A stretch of DNA of 4,771 nucleotides from a virus (taxonomy: Duplodnaviria; Heunggongvirae; Uroviricota; Caudoviricetes), in IMG/VR virus record IMGVR_UViG_2703718827_000009, positions 1 through 4,771 of that record, one strand, 5' to 3'. The position numbers were made by a program, and so were the translations under genes. Shown one piece after another: positions 1-4,771 of this stretch. Within the stretch, counting starts at the first letter, position 1, and each line of letters begins with the position of its first letter. Below the pieces are notes generated by a model, which saw only the letters and a program-made list of their open reading frames with translations, had not been told where the DNA came from and did no database searches.

Positions 1-318
1 TCACACCATCCTGTCGTCTTCGATCGCACTGTTGATGAAGTACGTCACCCTTCCCAACACCTCGACCTCTTCCGCTGCCTCACCTTCTATCGCTTCGCCA
101 TCATCCGTGATTAATGCCCTTCCCCTGAGTTTCGCAAATTGTGTTCGACCGCCGGACAAGATCAATAGCACCTGCCCCTGCACTAACCGGGTAACCGGTT
201 CGATAACCGCAAACCCGGAAGACGTTTCCAGGATGCGGGTATCAATGCCCACACCACAGATGAGTTCCGGTGTCATCCGCTGAGACACGTAATCAGCAGC
301 CGGTGAAGGAAAGCCCAT
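1..318 (-). CDS. UmuD'-like (HumD-like) S24/LexA-family beta-barrel protein; N-terminus in window at 318, 3' end beyond the window edge
   Basis: The product begins M-GFPSPAADYVSQR, matching from memory the segment of E. coli UmuD that follows its RecA-mediated cleavage site (GFPSPAADYVEQR). Later segments (GQVLLILSGGRTQFAKLRGR; EVEVLGRVTYFI) align loosely with the UmuD C-terminal strands. An in-frame stop lies 17 codons upstream (372..370), so no N-terminal arm is encoded. Start ATG 318..316 has a strong SD GGGAGGG 7 nt upstream and overlaps the stop of the upstream ORF (TGATG). Confidence 0.6.
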   Translation of the reverse strand: MGFPSPAADYVSQRMTPELICGVGIDTRILETSSGFAVIEPVTRLVQGQVLLILSGGRTQFAKLRGRALITDDGEAIEGEAAEEVEVLGRVTYFINSAIEDDRMV

Positions 319-557
319 CAGTGAACCCTCCCCATGTTGCGCAGGATCCAGTAGTGATTGTCGGTTCCGTCAGTTGTCTTGTCGGTAAAATCTGGCTGGT
401 AGTACTTTATCCACTCGTTGGCGTCGGCCCGGGTGAAATGCCAGTGGACCTTTGCCAGCTCGCGGATAAAGTCTTCTGTGCGTAAGCACCGGTAGCCCTT
501 GGAGTTTAGCTGTATTGCGGCCACAAATGCGCTGTGAATGTCTGATTGGCGGGGCAT
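318..557 (-). CDS. Small hypothetical protein (79 aa from ATG at 557; the reading frame stays open up to 644), first gene of a putative SOS-regulated pair
   Basis: Open frame 644..318 in the ORF track. The internal ATG at 557 is preferred because the LexA box (572..591) would otherwise lie inside the coding sequence; an AAGAG purine tract sits about 8 nt upstream of it. Its stop is translationally coupled to the downstream UmuD'-like gene. I recognise no family for the product (MPRQSDIHSAFVAAIQLNSKGYRCLRTEDFIRELAKVHWHF...). Confidence 0.45.
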   Translation of the reverse strand: MPRQSDIHSAFVAAIQLNSKGYRCLRTEDFIRELAKVHWHFTRADANEWIKYYQPDFTDKTTDGTDNHYWILRNMGRVH

Positions 558-571
558 GATCTGCACTCTTT

Positions 572-591
572 TACTGTTTTTATATACAGTA
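572..591. promoter_or_regulatory. LexA (SOS) box, TACTGTTTTTATATACAGTA
   Basis: Palindromic CTGT-N8-ACAG with an AT-rich spacer, matching the gammaproteobacterial consensus TACTG(TA)5CAGTA at about 17-18 of 20 positions. It lies 15 nt upstream of the minus-strand ATG at 557 and about 7 nt upstream of a strong plus-strand SD (598..604), in a divergent intergenic region. Confidence 0.7.
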
Positions 592-615: not shown

Positions 616-696
616 ATGGCTAGGCCTATCAATGGAGCAACCATGAGATTTAGCAGTTTGCGACCGCCGCTCCTCCCTCAAGCGAAACCACCGTGA
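616..696 (+). CDS. Candidate 26-aa small ORF (MARPINGATMRFSSLRPPLLPQAKPP) behind a near-perfect Shine-Dalgarno sequence; speculative
   Basis: AAGGAGGTG at 598..606 is a near-perfect anti-SD complement, followed after an 11-nt spacer by ATG 616 and an open frame to TGA 694..696. It sits directly downstream of the LexA box and upstream of, on the same strand as, the glycosyltransferase gene. The peptide is basic and Pro-rich with no recognisable family; it may equally be a chance ORF. Confidence 0.2.
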   Translation: MARPINGATMRFSSLRPPLLPQAKPP

Positions 697-702
697 TATA
701 TT
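694..702 (+). promoter_or_regulatory. Possible extended -10 element (TGaTATATT) for the glycosyltransferase gene
   Basis: TG at 694..695, one spacer base, then hexamer TATATT at 697..702 (5 of 6 matches to TATAAT). No good -35 is visible. It lies about 30 nt upstream of ATG 732, which has SD AAGGA at 720..724. Confidence 0.3.
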
Positions 703-731
703 TACGCCACACACACTATAAGGATCTTAAG

Positions 732-1913
732 ATGAAAGTTGCTGTTTTGATGATGCAAAAGGATGAGTACCGGCTTCTTGAGCCATGGATACTGCATCAT
801 GCTGAGCTTTTTGGCCTTGAAAATTTATACGTCTACGATAACGGGTCAGCAGATGAGCGATGCCTTAACATTCTTAAGGAATATTCGGGAAAAGGGATGA
901 ATGTCGTTTATGACAGAAGCACCTTTGATGATTTCAATACCAGACATATCTACTTCGTAGACAAATACGAAGAATTAAAGAATTATCATGGCTATGATTT
1001 TATGATGCCACTTGATTGTGATGAGTTTGTCGGCGTTGAATTTTCAAAGGGTAAGGTGTCGCTGTCTAAAAATGACGTGTTGAATGAATTATCAAAATAT
1101 ATAGAAACCGACGCCACATTTAAAATTAAATATACATATGGCAACCACCCGCTTAACCCCAAAGAATTTGCGTTAAGCCCTAAACCTGAGAAAGTGTTCT
1201 TCCCTAAATCAAGAATCACTGCGCTGGGTAATGGCTTCCATCGCGGTGAGGTTGAGTCAGGCCATCAAGTTGATACCGATATCATTTACCTTCATTTCCA
1301 TCATAAAAAATATGATGACTATATCGCCAGCGCCCGTAATAAACTGGAAGGTCTTGTTGACGTCAATGATATTGAGGCTCTGAAGGCATTCAAAGGGGCG
1401 GGACATCATTTAGTCAAAAAGTTCCTGATGACTCAGACTGAATATTACGATATGCATGCAGCTTCGAAATCTATCAACCCGTCTAAGTTCTTTATTATGG
1501 ATGGAGTTTATGAATACCTGAAGGGTATGGGGCTGAATCTGGAGCAAGCATTAACGGTTGAGCACGATGAAAGTAGAATAACGTGGCATGGTTACGTAGA
1601 CAGGGTAAGAGAAGAGGAAGCGTCATGCGTTTTCACAGGGTGGTGCGTGCCCACTGAGGGCGTTGAGCAGCAGTTCTTTAACTTACGCATAGGACAGGAG
1701 ATCCTGCCCGGTTTTCTGGAGGAAAAAATTCAGCGCTCAGATGTTGTAGCGAAGTTCCCAGATTACAATCTGGACTGCGGATATTTAGTGAGATTCTACG
1801 GATTAACCAAAGGTGCATTGCAGCGTAACGAGTGGGAATTTCATGTTACTGCCGGATGTAAAGGCACTGGTTCAAAACTCAACAGAAGGAAAACAGAGTC
1901 ATACTTCCAATAA
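732..1913 (+). CDS. GT-A fold glycosyltransferase (family-2-like, resembling the Glyco_tranf_2_4 type), 393 aa, with a C-terminal domain of unknown function
   Basis: The N-terminus MKVAVLMMQKDEYRLLEPWILHHAELFGLENLYVYDNGSADE follows the E-W..HH...G....Y.YDNGS.D pattern of GT-A enzymes, and a DxD-type motif PLDCDEF lies about 90 aa in. ATG 732 has a good SD (AAGGA, 7-nt spacer); the GTG at 693 listed in the ORF track has none. Stop TAA 1911..1913 is followed immediately by a strong terminator. No obvious transmembrane segment. The gene is visibly more AT-rich than its flanks. Confidence 0.65.
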   Translation: MKVAVLMMQKDEYRLLEPWILHHAELFGLENLYVYDNGSADERCLNILKEYSGKGMNVVYDRSTFDDFNTRHIYFVDKYEELKNYHGYDFMMPLDCDEFVGVEFSKGKVSLSKNDVLNELSKYIETDATFKIKYTYGNHPLNPKEFALSPKPEKVFFPKSRITALGNGFHRGEVESGHQVDTDIIYLHFHHKKYDDYIASARNKLEGLVDVNDIEALKAFKGAGHHLVKKFLMTQTEYYDMHAASKSINPSKFFIMDGVYEYLKGMGLNLEQALTVEHDESRITWHGYVDRVREEEASCVFTGWCVPTEGVEQQFFNLRIGQEILPGFLEEKIQRSDVVAKFPDYNLDCGYLVRFYGLTKGALQRNEWEFHVTAGCKGTGSKLNRRKTESYFQ

Positions 1914-1916
1914 AAT

Positions 1917-1940
1917 AAGGCGGGAAATCCCGCCTTTTTT
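1917..1940. terminator. Bidirectional rho-independent terminator between convergent transcription units
   Basis: GGCGGG (1919..1924) pairs with CCCGCC (1929..1934) around loop AAAT, followed by TTTTTT (1935..1940) on the plus strand. On the minus strand the same hairpin is followed by a U-rich tract (TTATTTTATT). It sits 3 nt after the glycosyltransferase stop and about 40 nt after the stop of the minus-strand 80-aa ORF. Confidence 0.75.
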
Positions 1941-1975: not shown

Positions 1976-2218
1976 CTAGCAATCAATTGTCGCATAAGGA
2001 AGTTCTGTCTTCGCATGTTTATAGCACTGCTCGAAGATATTAGGACCAGCGAGGTCATAATCGCATTCCATTGTTTGACGGTCTATCTGTGCTTTTTCGC
2101 CGGTTATTGGATGGTCAATATACTGAATGAGATCGTATTGTGCACGGTACTTTCCGTGCACTCTTGGCAGTTCAACGCGAATATAAACAGATCCTTCATT
2201 ATCATTCGTCAGTGCCAT
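1976..2218 (-). CDS. Hypothetical small acidic protein, 80 aa; last gene of the tailspike operon
   Basis: ATG 2218..2216 is preceded by SD GAGGT with a 5-nt spacer; stop TAG at 1978..1976. The start overlaps the preceding small ORF by 17 nt. The product (MALTNDNEGSVYIRVELPRVHGKYRAQYDLIQYIDHPITGEKAQIDRQTMECDYDLAGPNIFEQCYKHAKTELPYATIDC) has balanced composition with no signal peptide or transmembrane segment, and I recognise no family. The antisense plus-strand ORF (2015..2245) has a low-complexity hydrophobic product and looks spurious. Confidence 0.5.
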   Translation of the reverse strand: MALTNDNEGSVYIRVELPRVHGKYRAQYDLIQYIDHPITGEKAQIDRQTMECDYDLAGPNIFEQCYKHAKTELPYATIDC

Positions 2219-2363
2219 TCTTTACCTCGTGAAGAGATTCGATAGGGCTATCTAATTCTGCCTGCAATGCATTCATTGAAGCATTAAAAGCAGGAACTTC
2301 ATGACCGCTAAGATTTACGCGAAGCATAAACTGCATGATATTCTGAATAGTTTGCTTATCCAT
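2202..2363 (-). CDS. Hypothetical small acidic protein, 53 aa, immediately downstream of the tailspike gene
   Basis: This ORF is not in the supplied track (too short); I translated it by hand as MDKQTIQNIMQFMLRVNLSGHEVPAFNASMNALQAELDSPIESLHEVKNGTDE. ATG 2363..2361 is preceded by SD CAGGAC with a 6-7-nt spacer, only 12 nt after the tailspike stop. Stop TGA at 2204..2202 lies inside the start of the next ORF (17-nt overlap), suggesting translational coupling. Confidence 0.45.
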   Translation of the reverse strand: MDKQTIQNIMQFMLRVNLSGHEVPAFNASMNALQAELDSPIESLHEVKNGTDE

Positions 2364-2375
2364 TTTATTGTCCTG

Positions 2376-3878
2376 TTAAGTTAAACCAATTAATCCATGC
2401 CCGGTTGAAGCATGTAAGTCCTGAATTAATGCTGCAACTACCTTTGCTAAATCTTCGTGAGTTATTGTACCAGAATTAAACGCAGCTCTGGAAGTTGTAC
2501 CAGTTGGAGAACCCCATCCAGTTTTCCTCCCAGAAAGAATTTGATTGCCATTAACTCTAACATTCAGGTTGTTAAAGTTAGCCCAGTTCTCCGTCCTGTT
2601 AAGGCTCAAGTATGTCGTATTTGCAGGGCCTGTTCCTACGACAATTCTTTGATTGTCACCCAGCAAAATTGCGCAGTTATTACTGAACCCAGATTCAGTT
2701 AGAGAAATACCCACTCGGAAATTTCCATTTCTGAATCGTATACCATTTGCAGCGTTTGATAAAATAGATCCTTCAAGGCGCACATACTCGCCATTACCAA
2801 CTACAGTAGGTGCCTCTGTTGGCGGTACAATTGAATCGCCCCTGAATAGCAAACCAGTCCATATATACCCGTTAGGCGCAGCCGAGCCTCTTCCGACGTT
2901 AATCATGTGGGTTACACGGTTACTGCCATCGGTAGTGGTACAGACCAGACCTCGCGTATTTCCTTCCAGCTCAGCGCCTACCATCCAACCCTTATCTATG
3001 CTGCATCCATTATTGAGGTTGAATTCATGAACAATTACTGATTTGGCCCCTGTATTTGCTCCTCCAGTGCCTGCATCTCCTGATACTGCGCCGTACGACC
3101 ACCCGCCCCAAGCTTCGGCATTAGCATGGCGAGCCTCCCCCCTGAAATGAGCACCAACTAATTGCCCCGTCCCTCCTTCATGCCTTGCAGCAAAGGTTGC
3201 GGCAGCGCCATAAGCTGAACCACCTTGCTTTTCAAGATAACCGTAAAAGCACCCCTGTTCCCAACGCGAGACACCATCATCACGAGTTGCATTGGACTTT
3301 TTTTCTATCCATTGAACTGGATCTGGCGTGTCTGTAAGGGGTACTGAATATCGTTGCCGCATGGCATTCGAATATTGGATTGTGTTGTTATTGTAGATGT
3401 TTACACCAGCAACATCAGACCCCGTCCAGCCGCCTCCACCATAAAGATCGTCAAGCCCTTTCCCGTCTTTACCTGCAAATAAAGACCTCAAAGAGGCATC
3501 CCCAACACTTACCCATGCTCCGAGCCCAATTCCACCAGTGGAAATAGGAGTAGAGCCAGCTGGAACTACTTTACCGCCAGGAGGAAGCGCACCATCCCAT
3601 CGATAATATTCACCAGTGCTTGTATCTCGTAAAACCTGATTATATAACTCAATAGTTGCGCCAGATTGAAAAGAATCTAATGTTATATATCCAAATGAGG
3701 AAATAGCAGAAGCAGCCATTTCCTCAATTCCATACCACGTCTTACGCTTCCTTCCAAAGCGGTCCTGCCAGAAGGTAGAGTTTAAGTCATTTATTGCAGA
3801 GTCAAAGTTTTGTGAGTTGTCATATAGATCGCGCGGGTCTACTGAGCCCGGCGGATTATTAGTGGCGTATTTGGTCAT
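2376..3878 (-). CDS. Phage tailspike / receptor-binding protein with a predicted parallel beta-helix (polysaccharide depolymerase-like) body, about 500 aa
   Basis: Long minus-strand ORF (track 2376..3893). The central and C-terminal parts are Gly/Asn/Thr/Ser-rich with short repeats of alternating hydrophobic residues and Asn/Gly turns (e.g. NGIRFRNGNFRVGISLTESGFSNNCAILLGDNQRIVVGTG; NLNVRVNGNQILSG), typical of tailspike beta-helices. It sits directly downstream of a large tail structural gene. Start ATG 3878 is preferred (SD GGAG, 5-nt spacer) over ATG 3893, which directly abuts a T-run with no SD. The specific family was not identified from memory. Confidence 0.6.
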   Translation of the reverse strand: MTKYATNNPPGSVDPRDLYDNSQNFDSAINDLNSTFWQDRFGRKRKTWYGIEEMAASAISSFGYITLDSFQSGATIELYNQVLRDTSTGEYYRWDGALPPGGKVVPAGSTPISTGGIGLGAWVSVGDASLRSLFAGKDGKGLDDLYGGGGWTGSDVAGVNIYNNNTIQYSNAMRQRYSVPLTDTPDPVQWIEKKSNATRDDGVSRWEQGCFYGYLEKQGGSAYGAAATFAARHEGGTGQLVGAHFRGEARHANAEAWGGWSYGAVSGDAGTGGANTGAKSVIVHEFNLNNGCSIDKGWMVGAELEGNTRGLVCTTTDGSNRVTHMINVGRGSAAPNGYIWTGLLFRGDSIVPPTEAPTVVGNGEYVRLEGSILSNAANGIRFRNGNFRVGISLTESGFSNNCAILLGDNQRIVVGTGPANTTYLSLNRTENWANFNNLNVRVNGNQILSGRKTGWGSPTGTTSRAAFNSGTITHEDLAKVVAALIQDLHASTGHGLIGLT

Positions 3879-3893
3879 GCTCGCTCCGGGCAT

Positions 3894-3934: not shown

Positions 3935-4771
3935 TTAAGCGGCGTCACCGGGGTATGTGGCGTCGTCATAGGCATACTTTCCTGGGTGGTACTGGATGGC
4001 TGTTACCTGACTGATCCCGTCATTGCCTGGGGATATTTCCCCCACCAGTGCGTCATACGGCACACGGACAGACGAGCAGAACAGCAGGCGCGGCGGCTCA
4101 ATGTACGCATCGTTCATTGCCCATAATTCCGGCTCCAGCGCGGCGCTGTACGGCACCGAGATCGTGAAGTCGTCAATGCGAGTCGGCACCACCATGGCTG
4201 ATGCCCTGCCGTCCTGATGGCGGATAATTACGCGCGGGTTTTCAAACGACCAGTCCGGGGACTCACTGAGCGTCATAGTGATTTTGCTGCTGTCATATGT
4301 CATATCGGTAATCAGGCAACTCAGCGTCTGGCTGCCGGGGATGTCATCGGCCAGCACAATGCGATCCATGAACTCATAACAGAGCGCATCCATCTCTGTT
4401 GATGTGGTGTGCTGCAGGCGCTGAAGCTGGTAGCCCAGCAACCGGCGCATGCCGATGCGGTAAGCGCGGTCCTCGTCCAGAACGCCATCCAGCGTGTAGC
4501 TCTCGATTTTCACCGGCGTAGGGTTGCCAGGCAGGCGACACTGCACGGTCTCCTCTGCCCAGGTGGTACCGTTGATATACGTCACGTCCACGCCATCGTA
4601 ATCGTCCTGAGACGGGGCCTTAAACGCGGTCTGCAACTCCTCGGTGGTTTCCTGCGGGGTGATCATGCCTACCCAGGGTTTAATCCCTTCCCGGCCAGCA
4701 GACGCCAGCCCGTCAGACAGCAGGAAATACCCCATCCCCGCGTTGGTGATTTTCTGCAGCACCTCAAGTGC
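3935..4771 (-). CDS. C-terminal ~275 aa of a large phage tail structural protein (possibly central tail fibre or tail-tip, host-specificity type); 5' end beyond the window
   Basis: The minus-strand frame is open from the window edge (reads ...ALEVLQKITNAG...) to stop TAA 3937..3935. GC-rich with enteric-like codon usage (frequent CTG, GCG, CGC). It sits immediately upstream of the tailspike gene. I could not match it confidently to lambda J from memory, so the identity is inferred from position only. Confidence 0.5.
   Translation of the reverse strand, partial: ALEVLQKITNAGMGYFLLSDGLASAGREGIKPWVGMITPQETTEELQTAFKAPSQDDYDGVDVTYINGTTWAEETVQCRLPGNPTPVKIESYTLDGVLDEDRAYRIGMRRLLGYQLQRLQHTTSTEMDALCYEFMDRIVLADDIPGSQTLSCLITDMTYDSSKITMTLSESPDWSFENPRVIIRHQDGRASAMVVPTRIDDFTISVPYSAALEPELWAMNDAYIEPPRLLFCSSVRVPYDALVGEISPGNDGISQVTAIQYHPGKYAYDDATYPGDAA

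Follow-up and report, generated by a model that had tools for sequence, protein, structure and literature searches.

NeuO, which is carried by prophage CUS-3 of Escherichia coli K1, is a soluble cytoplasmic enzyme whose target is an ABC-exported capsule, and its gene sits between the integrase end of the prophage and the tailspike gene. CUS-3 is a P22-like argW prophage and NeuO, as a modifier of the surface polymer, protects against K1 phage (PMC9659370). A second case is TarP, a prophage-encoded wall-teichoic-acid GlcNAc-transferase of Staphylococcus aureus (PMC9650247), and the two enzymes are soluble cytoplasmic precedents that contradict the view, implied in the preliminary description of the DNA studied here, that phage conversion is always carried out by membrane-embedded enzymes (PMC9659370; PMC9650247). 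The GtrABC modules (P22, SfV, Hf4s and K-12 CPS-53, where the genes are named yfdGHI) are in fact of the membrane-embedded kind, being three-component systems that act in the periplasm via Und-P-glucose, and in Hf4s the gtr-mediated conversion stops adsorption of the phage's own kind (10.1101/2021.06.09.447823).

We analysed a window of 4,771 nucleotides of a tailed phage, in which a plus-strand gene (732..1913) encodes a 393-residue protein (WP_061353793.1), a soluble enzyme of GT-A type with a beta-sandwich in its C-terminal part. This is a rare, uncharacterised soluble glycosyltransferase of an E. coli prophage, located in a slot for surface-altering genes. The GtrABC modules lie in the same slot, with the integrase on one side and the tailspike on the other, and presumably serve the same end, whereas here there is one soluble protein, and family searches of the window retrieved no gtrA, gtrB or gtrC neighbour and no Gtr-family match. 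The likeness to NeuO and CUS-3 is positional, since it is also at argW/intS that the prophages of strains PK12 and 19KM1803 have the present gene; however, NeuO is a phase-variable O-acetyltransferase with a proven target and the present enzyme is a glycosyltransferase. For TarP, no link with the gene of a receptor-binding protein has been described, whereas the present gene adjoins that of a tailspike.

The open reading frame was confirmed at 732-1913 on the plus strand and, although mechanical translation opens it earlier, at a GTG at position 693, we take the ATG at 732 as the true start, because every homologue aligns from the residues MKVA onwards. A Shine-Dalgarno motif (AAGGA, 720..724, plus strand) lies 7 nt 5' of this ATG and is kept in four loci, and a candidate extended -10 element (TG-A-TATATT, TGATATATT, 694..702, plus strand), read from the sequence, is identical in the same number of loci. 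A consensus promoter scan gave no -35/-10 pair at this candidate element (694-702), so the promoter of the gene is a proposal made by eye. On the other side, the gene converges with the tailspike operon and a bidirectional intrinsic terminator lies between them (1917..1936, matched by the scan on both strands), with a stem of 8 bp (6 G-C pairs) and an RNA fold of -15.8 kcal/mol (z -4.5) whose stability was equalled by 0/200 shuffled sequences. The gene is opposite in strand to the tail genes and its GC content is 41.8%, against 54-58% in the backbone genes. Its own terminator, deviant base composition and independent orientation are the traits of a moron, and it is probably a prophage accessory gene of this type, with an extended -10 promoter of its own and independent of the late operon. 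The Shine-Dalgarno motif, terminator, low GC content and candidate extended -10 had already been noticed in the preliminary description, and all of them are present. The gene is under purifying selection (dN/dS 0.05-0.23).

We are confident, from family profile and structural model, that the product is a soluble glycosyltransferase of GT-A fold with a DxD motif. The Pfam family PF13704 (Glyco_tranf_2_4, clan CL0110) matched residues 11-106 with 37.2 bits, above the cut-off of 27.5 (E 4.2e-9), and the AlphaFold2 model (pLDDT 88.5) contains a single Rossmann-like alpha/beta/alpha nucleotide-binding domain. The catalytic core (732..1301, plus strand; residues 1-190) includes a YDNGS nucleotide-binding loop (D36-S39) and the nearly invariant H188 and H190, and the DxD codons (1014..1022, plus strand) encode D95-C96-D97, followed in the alignment by the invariant E98-F99. 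These five residues are invariant in 37/37 aligned family members, with the DxD also present in all 12 full-length ones, and further downstream H170 never varies and H188/H190 are conserved to at least 90%. The domain and structure-similarity searches suggested earlier thus bear out a GT-A enzyme with a DxD. The absence of an obvious transmembrane segment was likewise confirmed, the highest 19-residue Kyte-Doolittle mean being 0.41.

The C-terminal part had been taken for an unrecognised domain of about 200 residues, which needs revision. A helical subdomain (1311..1526, plus strand; residues 194-265, defined by the helices of the model, with invariant K204, L205 and G224) belongs to the conserved family core, as residues 1 to about 250 are common to the homologues. 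A linker modelled with low confidence (residues 266-284) then precedes the additional domain, of only about 100 residues, a recognisable Ig/CBM-like beta-sandwich (1584..1856, plus strand; residues ~285-375). By structure comparison, this sandwich is similar to the accessory domains of TarK/TarL, TarS, RmlT and GalS1, and as a sequence query on its own it matched a single fragment.

The nearest solved structure is that of GalS1, a GT92 beta-1,4-galactan synthase (PDB 8d3t), at an identity of only 15%, and the profile of CAZy family GT92 (Pfam PF01697) scored 14.2 bits, below its cut-off of 23. TarP (PDB 6h1j), with its relatives TarS and RmlT, is a fold match at about 16% identity, and the GT-A catalytic domain followed by a C-terminal accessory or oligomerisation domain, as in TarP and TarS, is a layout that the model also predicts here. 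TarP acts on wall teichoic acid, a polymer that is absent from E. coli, the present host being Gram-negative. The GT-A fucosyltransferase WrtF of the Rhizobium tropici O-polysaccharide (PDB 9omh) is 11% identical to the present enzyme. Catalysis by WrtF is reported to be metal-free (PMC12595478), whereas the present family keeps an invariant DxD, and the gene of WrtF is chromosomal whereas the present gene is phage-borne. No PDB chain matched the enzyme by sequence, searches of PHROG and NCBIfam gave no family match, those of anti-phage defence families and RNA families gave no match either, and the literature on the strain names and the accession contained nothing useful.

The enzyme belongs to a family of about 2,300 representative sequences, none of them characterised. 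As a tblastn search of 50,697 phage records returned no relative, the family is without phage precedent among them; the argW or P22-like seroconverting coliphages Kapi1 and Hf4s use an acyltransferase candidate and gtrABC, respectively, instead of this gene. The cluster at 90% identity, of 148 members, extends to Enterobacter hormaechei, and one homologue with 50% identity adjoins a phage lysozyme gene. Full-length homologues with 29-36% identity are found in polysaccharide loci, beside multi-domain glycosyltransferases of 720-1250 residues, nucleotide-sugar genes and rml genes, and on two E. coli plasmids homologues lie within kps-like ABC-transporter capsule loci. Judged by this gene content, the distant homologues belong to loci for polysaccharides that are assembled in the cytoplasm by large glycosyltransferases, a context that suits the option, raised in the preliminary description, of action on a cytoplasmic intermediate. 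It also bears on a quite different role. Phages are known to encode glycosyltransferases that modify DNA, and one of the weak BFVD matches, at rank 43, is a TET-associated glycosyltransferase from phage phiRSL1. However, glycosylation of bases in the phage's own DNA is extremely improbable here, considering that family searches of the window found no genes for hypermodified-base synthesis, that the phages are of temperate lambdoid or P22-like types, that homologues occur in polysaccharide loci and that the present gene is laid out as a moron.

The tailspike (2376..3893, minus strand; 505 residues), matched by PHROG tail fibre/spike families, has a Tail_spike_N anchor (PF18668, residues 63-132) followed by a receptor-binding region (residues 135-505) with no sequence relative in the PDB. 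As known tailspikes are matched by the N-terminal anchor domain only, the earlier term "polysaccharide-targeting" goes beyond what the matches support. Identity to this receptor-binding region is 96% in E3, 68% in PK12 and 33% in locus L008, and the linkage holds even at the lowest of these values: the glycosyltransferase, an 80-aa ORF, a 53-aa ORF and one tailspike receptor-binding family are found together in both siphovirus-type and podovirus-type (P22-like) prophages. The 80-aa ORF (1976..2218, minus strand), of unknown function, always lies between tailspike and glycosyltransferase, with copies 76-100% identical in L001, L002, L003 and L008. The 53-aa ORF (2202..2363, minus strand), also of unknown function, is directly downstream of the tailspike, with copies 62-100% identical in five loci, and is cut to residues 1-38 at an IS1 scar in L011 and L012. 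By comparison of these loci, the glycosyltransferase and the tailspike receptor-binding domain move as one cassette between two phage morphotypes. The P22-like prophages of PK12 and 19KM1803 have the order argW-intS-cassette-tailspike, and in K-12 CPS-53 the order argW-intS-yfdGHI places gtrA/gtrB/gtrS at the position held elsewhere by the cassette, so that the placement beside the tailspike described earlier not only stands, it is that of gtrABS in CPS-53. An IS1-associated deletion removed the glycosyltransferase gene in 3/6 complete genomes carrying this tailspike family.

The constant company of the tailspike and of two conserved small ORFs, the 80-aa one with three cysteines, would also fit an enzyme that glycosylates proteins instead of a polysaccharide, be it those of the virion, such as the tailspike, the two small cassette products (80 and 53 aa) or one on the host surface, and the proteomes of phages and giant viruses often include GT-A enzymes. 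We nevertheless hold a protein target to be very unlikely: the gene runs opposite to the structural genes and ends at a terminator of its own, homologues elsewhere occur in polysaccharide biosynthesis loci without phage genes, family searches of the window revealed no glycocin-like set of leader peptide, transporter and immunity genes, and the CBM-like C-terminal sandwich is unlike the helical peptide-binding domain of SunS.

The genomes of two complete hosts allowed us to compare the enzyme with the surface polysaccharides. In E3, the O-antigen locus is of the O18 family and the kps locus, of K2 type, encodes a CDP-glycerol glycerophosphotransferase, i.e., one for a teichoic-acid-like polymer, and PK12 has an O11-family locus and a kps region 2 of the type of E. 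coli 536, a K15 strain. Despite these differing O and kps loci, the two enzymes are ~97-98% identical (7 amino acid differences). The other four genomes with a PK12-type tailspike were absent from the O11 genomes listed (60 of 66) and from the listed genomes sharing kps region 2 of PK12 (60 of 63). We thus found no association with O or K type, because the two hosts differ in both loci and the carriers of the PK12-type tailspike are absent among the matches listed. The host types, together with the presence in E. hormaechei, argue against a serotype-specific repeat unit as the acceptor, and the host-type data do not tie the target of the enzyme to the tailspike receptor. The earlier suggestion that the enzyme converts the same polysaccharide that the tailspike recognises therefore receives no support from the host serotypes (O18/K2 and O11/536-type, with near-identical enzymes).

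Two further readings depend on these data. A near-identical enzyme across O and K types and in a second genus, and a tailspike type without association to O11 or to the PK12 kps type among the listed genomes, would fit cargo that serves host fitness and is unrelated to adsorption, altering a conserved envelope glycan (LPS core, enterobacterial common antigen or osmoregulated glucans) and so helping the host to evade immunity or to tolerate stress, with the tailspike as neighbour only because prophage ends are the usual cargo slot. Such ends are general moron slots, and the 50% identical homologue occupies another slot, beside a lysis gene; yet co-transfer with one receptor-binding family, across two morphotypes and down to 33% identity, is unexpected for random cargo, and we judge this explanation unlikely. 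The other is a narrower version of the explanation we favour, in which the enzyme decorates a group 2 or 3 ABC-transporter-dependent capsule in the cytoplasm and the tailspike is specific for that capsule. Group 2 kps loci are present in both complete hosts examined, that of E3 points to a teichoic-acid-like polymer, the sandwich resembles domains of teichoic-acid enzymes, the E. coli plasmid homologues lie inside kps-like loci and NeuO, on the argW prophage CUS-3, sets a direct precedent by its position (PMC9659370). However, region-2 genes differ between E3 and PK12 while the enzymes hardly do, none of the listed genomes with the PK12 capsule region is one of the four others that have a PK12-type tailspike, and two capsulated hosts out of two are weak evidence, so that so specific a version appears unlikely.

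The explanation that we favour, to which we give a probability of about 50%, is that this is a soluble prophage enzyme of lysogenic conversion which, like TarP and NeuO, works from the cytoplasmic side, here on an intermediate of an envelope glycan. The gene would be expressed in the lysogen from its own extended -10 promoter, apart from the late operon, and in the catalytic domain the DNGS loop and D95-x-D97 would bind a nucleotide-sugar, with metal-dependent and probably inverting GT-A catalysis, while the C-terminal beta-sandwich may bind the acceptor glycan or serve in oligomerisation. The sugar would be added to the intermediate while this is still at the cytoplasmic face of the inner membrane, candidate acceptors being a lipid-linked O-unit, an ABC-transporter-exported capsule, the LPS core and the enterobacterial common antigen, and the altered polymer, once exported, would bring about lysogenic conversion with masking of the receptor and so affect phage adsorption, following the logic of TarP and NeuO and not that of GtrABC. 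In Wzx/Wzy pathways an O-unit modified in the cytoplasm still has to be flipped and polymerised, a known constraint that counts against this explanation, as do the differing O and kps loci of hosts with near-identical enzymes, the absence of the other PK12-type tailspike genomes from the O11 and kps genomes listed, the occurrence in E. hormaechei, the promoter proposed by eye, the loss of the glycosyltransferase in half of the complete genomes with this tailspike family, the empty search of phage records and the absence of a characterised close relative.

More tentatively, we considered a Gtr-independent class of seroconversion in Enterobacteria, possible but doubtful at present, in which one soluble GT-A protein that bears a CBM-like domain would travel with a tailspike receptor-binding domain, be swapped among prophages of podovirus and siphovirus type, and remodel an envelope glycan assembled in the cytoplasm (group 2 capsule, enterobacterial common antigen or LPS core), thereby blocking the partner tailspike, as a Gram-negative counterpart of TarP. 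If a surface glycan is altered, one small transferable gene would shift both serotype and phage susceptibility, and standard seroconversion screens based on gtr and oac would miss it; this would also be the first function for the family. The fixed pairing with one tailspike receptor-binding family would connect a modification with the receptor-binding protein that it blocks, which could be of use in predicting phage host range and in serotyping from genomes.

Upstream of the gene, a LexA box (TACTGT-N8-ACAGTA, 572..591) is the one perfect match against 0.01 expected and is conserved in four loci. It lies 14 nt upstream of a minus-strand ATG at 557, overlapping a promoter-like TTGATC-17-TACTGT, and is most likely the operator of a divergent minus-strand UmuD-like operon. 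LexA (SOS) control of the glycosyltransferase, which the preliminary description had entertained, was rejected on geometry, given that the box precedes the candidate -10 element of that gene by ~105 bp, neither overlapping its promoter nor just downstream of it, and 14 nt from the divergent 79-aa ORF. A link with a small upstream ORF fares no better, as the 26-aa ORF at 616-696 is doubtful: its Shine-Dalgarno motif is not conserved, AAGGAGG reading AAGTAGA in three other loci. The first gene of the LexA-box operon is the 79-aa ORF (318..557, minus strand), a match to phrog_3893, of unknown function; the match covers residues 30-108 of the mechanical ORF and a 240-nt gene is annotated in three genomes. 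It is followed by a UmuD'-like protein of 105 residues (1..318, minus strand; phrog_3469, PHROG E 4.5e-45), part of the conserved cassette, whose gene is found in L001-L003 with remnants in L011/L012. The product of the 80-aa ORF, which had no family match in Pfam, PHROG or NCBIfam, has one of its three cysteines as the C-terminal residue. At the other end of the window, the C-terminal part of a TipJ-family tail-tip protein (3935..4771, minus strand; NCBIfam NF040662, E 2e-71) belongs to the siphovirus backbone, and its gene extends past the window end, the complete 3084-nt gene being present in E3.

The 4771-base window, on contig LONM01000021.1 of the E. coli draft genome GCA_001575785.1, comes from the end of a prophage adjoining yciB, and its gene at 732-1913 (plus strand) is best read as a prophage moron for a soluble, metal-dependent GT-A enzyme that would remodel a surface polymer. 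The existence of the gene was confirmed, and its start was placed at ATG 732 instead of the mechanical GTG 693, because the homologues all align from MKVA... and AAGGA lies 7 nt upstream. Pfam PF13704 (Glyco_tranf_2_4) matches above its curated cut-off, confined to residues 11-106; PHROG, NCBIfam and PADLOC searches with the enzyme gave no match, and a PDB search no sequence relative. A model computed with AlphaFold2 from 37 homologues has high confidence (pLDDT 88.5), and in the homologue alignment D95-C-D97-E-F, D36, S39, H170 and K204 are invariant, and His188 and His190 nearly so, in agreement with the GT-A enzyme with DxD motif of the preliminary description. The absence of a transmembrane segment also held, the hydrophobicity maximum (19-residue window mean) being 0.41, far under membrane-helix level. 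As described, the gene is AT-rich (41.8% GC vs 54-58% for the flanking conserved phage genes) and has its own Shine-Dalgarno sequence and terminator, a hairpin (1917-1936) of -15.8 kcal/mol that beats 200 of 200 shuffles and is positive on both strands in a terminator scan. Among five alleles, dN/dS is 0.05-0.23 in every pair except the near-identical PK12/19KM1803 one (0.77, 4 nt differences) and, therefore, the gene is maintained by selection.

Residues 1 to ~250, common to the homologues, comprise the GT-A core and a helical subdomain, followed in the model by a low-confidence linker and a ~100-aa beta-sandwich, so that the ~200-aa C-terminal domain proposed earlier had the wrong size. Modelled alone, the beta-sandwich reached pLDDT 87 and matched Ig/CBM-like sandwiches; given the modest scores and how widespread the fold is, we go no further than to call it a likely module for glycan binding or oligomerisation.

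The gene is rare, being present in three of the 5426 complete E. coli genomes; its 90%-identity cluster comprises 148 E. coli and Enterobacter hormaechei members, annotated as 'glycosyltransferase family 2 protein' and nothing else, and tblastn of the enzyme against 50,697 phage records gave no match. E3 is 91% identical over the whole window and its prophage is of siphovirus type (tape measure and TipJ genes); in the window, the end portion of a TipJ-family tail-tip gene runs from 3935 onward (minus strand). PK12 and 19KM1803 carry the same cassette (UmuD'-like gene, 79-aa gene, glycosyltransferase, 80-aa ORF, 53-aa ORF and the C-terminal two-thirds of the tailspike) inside a P22-like prophage at tRNA-Arg/intS, at the position where K-12 CPS-53 has gtrA/gtrB/gtrS (yfdGHI). 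A fourth locus combines an 88% identical enzyme with a tailspike receptor-binding region that has diverged to 33%. Three other genomes (E. coli CFSAN061770, EP91A and EF5-18-41) have the PK12-type tailspike and lack the glycosyltransferase gene; what remains there is a truncated 53-aa ORF, a UmuD'-like remnant and an IS1 fragment, and this points to removal of the cassette core by an IS1-associated deletion. In these genomes (L011 and L012, 5314-5988 in both), the IS1 fragment replaces the stretch from the 53-aa ORF C-terminus through the 80-aa ORF, glycosyltransferase and 79-aa ORF up to the UmuD'-like N-terminus. The enzyme is, therefore, persistently linked to one tailspike receptor-binding family in two virion types, yet dispensable.

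The window tailspike (505 aa, 2376-3893, minus strand) had been called polysaccharide-targeting, which is unproven, as its match to known tailspikes is limited to the N-terminal anchor domain. The PK12 and 19KM1803 tailspikes join the window-type receptor-binding region (68-69% identical) to a P22 head-binding domain; this chimeric ORF is intact (478 aa; 13677-15113 in both loci), and its RefSeq call as an incomplete 'head-binding domain' pseudogene is wrong. The receptor-binding region has one isolated-phage relative, in Kagunavirus LM02P1 (56% identical); tail spike proteins from coliphages of ~145-150 kb (nieznany, tuntematon) match it at 24%. A weak resemblance links the last ~50 tailspike residues to the C-terminus of P22-type tail needle proteins. 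The 80-aa and 53-aa ORFs (1976-2218 and 2202-2363, minus strand) are 100% identical to 19KM1803 and 85-89% to E3, whereas the receptor-binding region shows the reverse (69% and 96%, respectively), which places a recombination junction at the 3' end of the tailspike gene; the final ~45 tailspike residues are common to all compared loci.

Among 1.84 billion representative proteins, a profile search retrieved 2282 relatives of the enzyme with differing C-terminal modules (384 at E < 1e-30). In species-representative genomes (Acetobacteraceae, Alteromonadaceae, Azomonas, Sphingobium and picocyanobacteria), every relative is <=38% identical. Full-length relatives sit in polysaccharide loci, beside dual-GT2, RgpF or WbsX-type multi-domain glycosyltransferases, UDP-glucose dehydrogenase, nucleotidyltransferases and rml genes, and two E. 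coli plasmids carry relatives (36% and 29% identity) within kps-like loci that contain an ABC transporter, export proteins and a GT92 gene. Such neighbours indicate that the family takes part in assembling glycans of the type made by soluble cytoplasmic glycosyltransferases. They are at odds with glycosylation of a protein, a rather improbable role, to which a SunS match and the conserved small ORFs would point; DNA modification by the enzyme is very unlikely. The plasmids are pPSJ-12_1 (L094, IncY, 84 kb) and p13QT31-2 (L095, IncHI1B, 190 kb), IncY being the replicon type of P1-like phage-plasmids; in both, the kps-like ABC-transporter locus is complete, with a ~910-aa methyltransferase, a ~810-aa GT2 protein, the distant homologue, the GT92 gene and rfbBD. 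On a short metagenomic contig (L014, 148-2211), a homologue with 50% identity is followed directly by a 90-aa ORF and a phage lysozyme, and thus the family also occupies a second phage cargo slot, beside lysis genes.

We propose that the gene is expressed in lysogens and that the enzyme, which from its type would act at the cytoplasmic face, transfers a sugar from its donor, presumably with inverting chemistry, to an envelope-glycan intermediate before export; the surface polymer would be altered as a result, and adsorption may be affected. This putative logic resembles that of TarP, from a S. aureus prophage (PMC9650247), and of NeuO, on the argW prophage CUS-3 (PMC9659370), and differs from the periplasmic route of GtrABC; given these precedents, the premise that phage conversion is always membrane-embedded was too strong.

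The E3 loci are of the O18 family (Wzx/Wzy) with K2-type kps, and those of PK12 of the O11 family with kps region 2 shared with strain 536, yet the two enzymes differ at 7 residues in total; no other genome with the PK12-type tailspike was found among the 60 of 66 O11 genomes listed, nor among the 60 of 63 listed genomes of the 536 kps type. This weakens a serotype-specific repeat unit as acceptor, and with it the idea that enzyme and tailspike address the same host serotype polymer, and makes a conserved acceptor (LPS core, ECA or a shared linker) or a promiscuous enzyme more plausible. The same host diversity speaks against an otherwise attractive capsule-specific version of the conversion model, which we consider doubtful. 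The missing serotype association would agree with a host-fitness cargo gene with no relation to adsorption, a possible if unlikely explanation with which the persistent tailspike linkage disagrees. For the preliminary description, the observation of the gene is confirmed and the interpretation partly supported: the ~200-aa domain has the wrong size, the membrane premise is too strong, and the same-polymer idea and the LexA link gained no support. As a putative surface-glycan-remodelling moron, the gene is an uncharacterised addition to the prophage-borne enzymes of this kind, and its appeal lies in the pairing with one tailspike family, which is directly testable.

The perfect LexA box (572-591; one match vs 0.01 expected) is kept in four loci. 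The divergent 79-aa/UmuD'-like operon starts 14 nt downstream of the box, which overlaps a promoter-like TTGATC-17-TACTGT on that strand and precedes the candidate extended -10 element of the glycosyltransferase gene by ~105 bp; this placement fits the divergent operon and gives no support to SOS control of the enzyme. The 26-aa ORF (616-696), to which the gene had also been tentatively linked, has a strong Shine-Dalgarno sequence in this window alone. A 9-bp inverted repeat, GATCTGCAC / GTGCAGATC, flanks the box (558-566 and 604-612) and is probably not functional, since its right arm is ATTCAGATC in three other loci. The LexA-box-controlled operon (1-591; 11304-11857 in the PK12, E3 and 19KM1803 loci) encodes the 79-aa phrog_3893 protein (318-557, minus strand) and the 105-aa UmuD'-like protein (1-318, minus strand). 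The latter starts with MGFPSPAADY, at the point where processed UmuD' begins, and its match to the HumD family model is limited to its first 19 residues; it looks like a pre-truncated UmuD'/HumD analogue, present in both prophage types.
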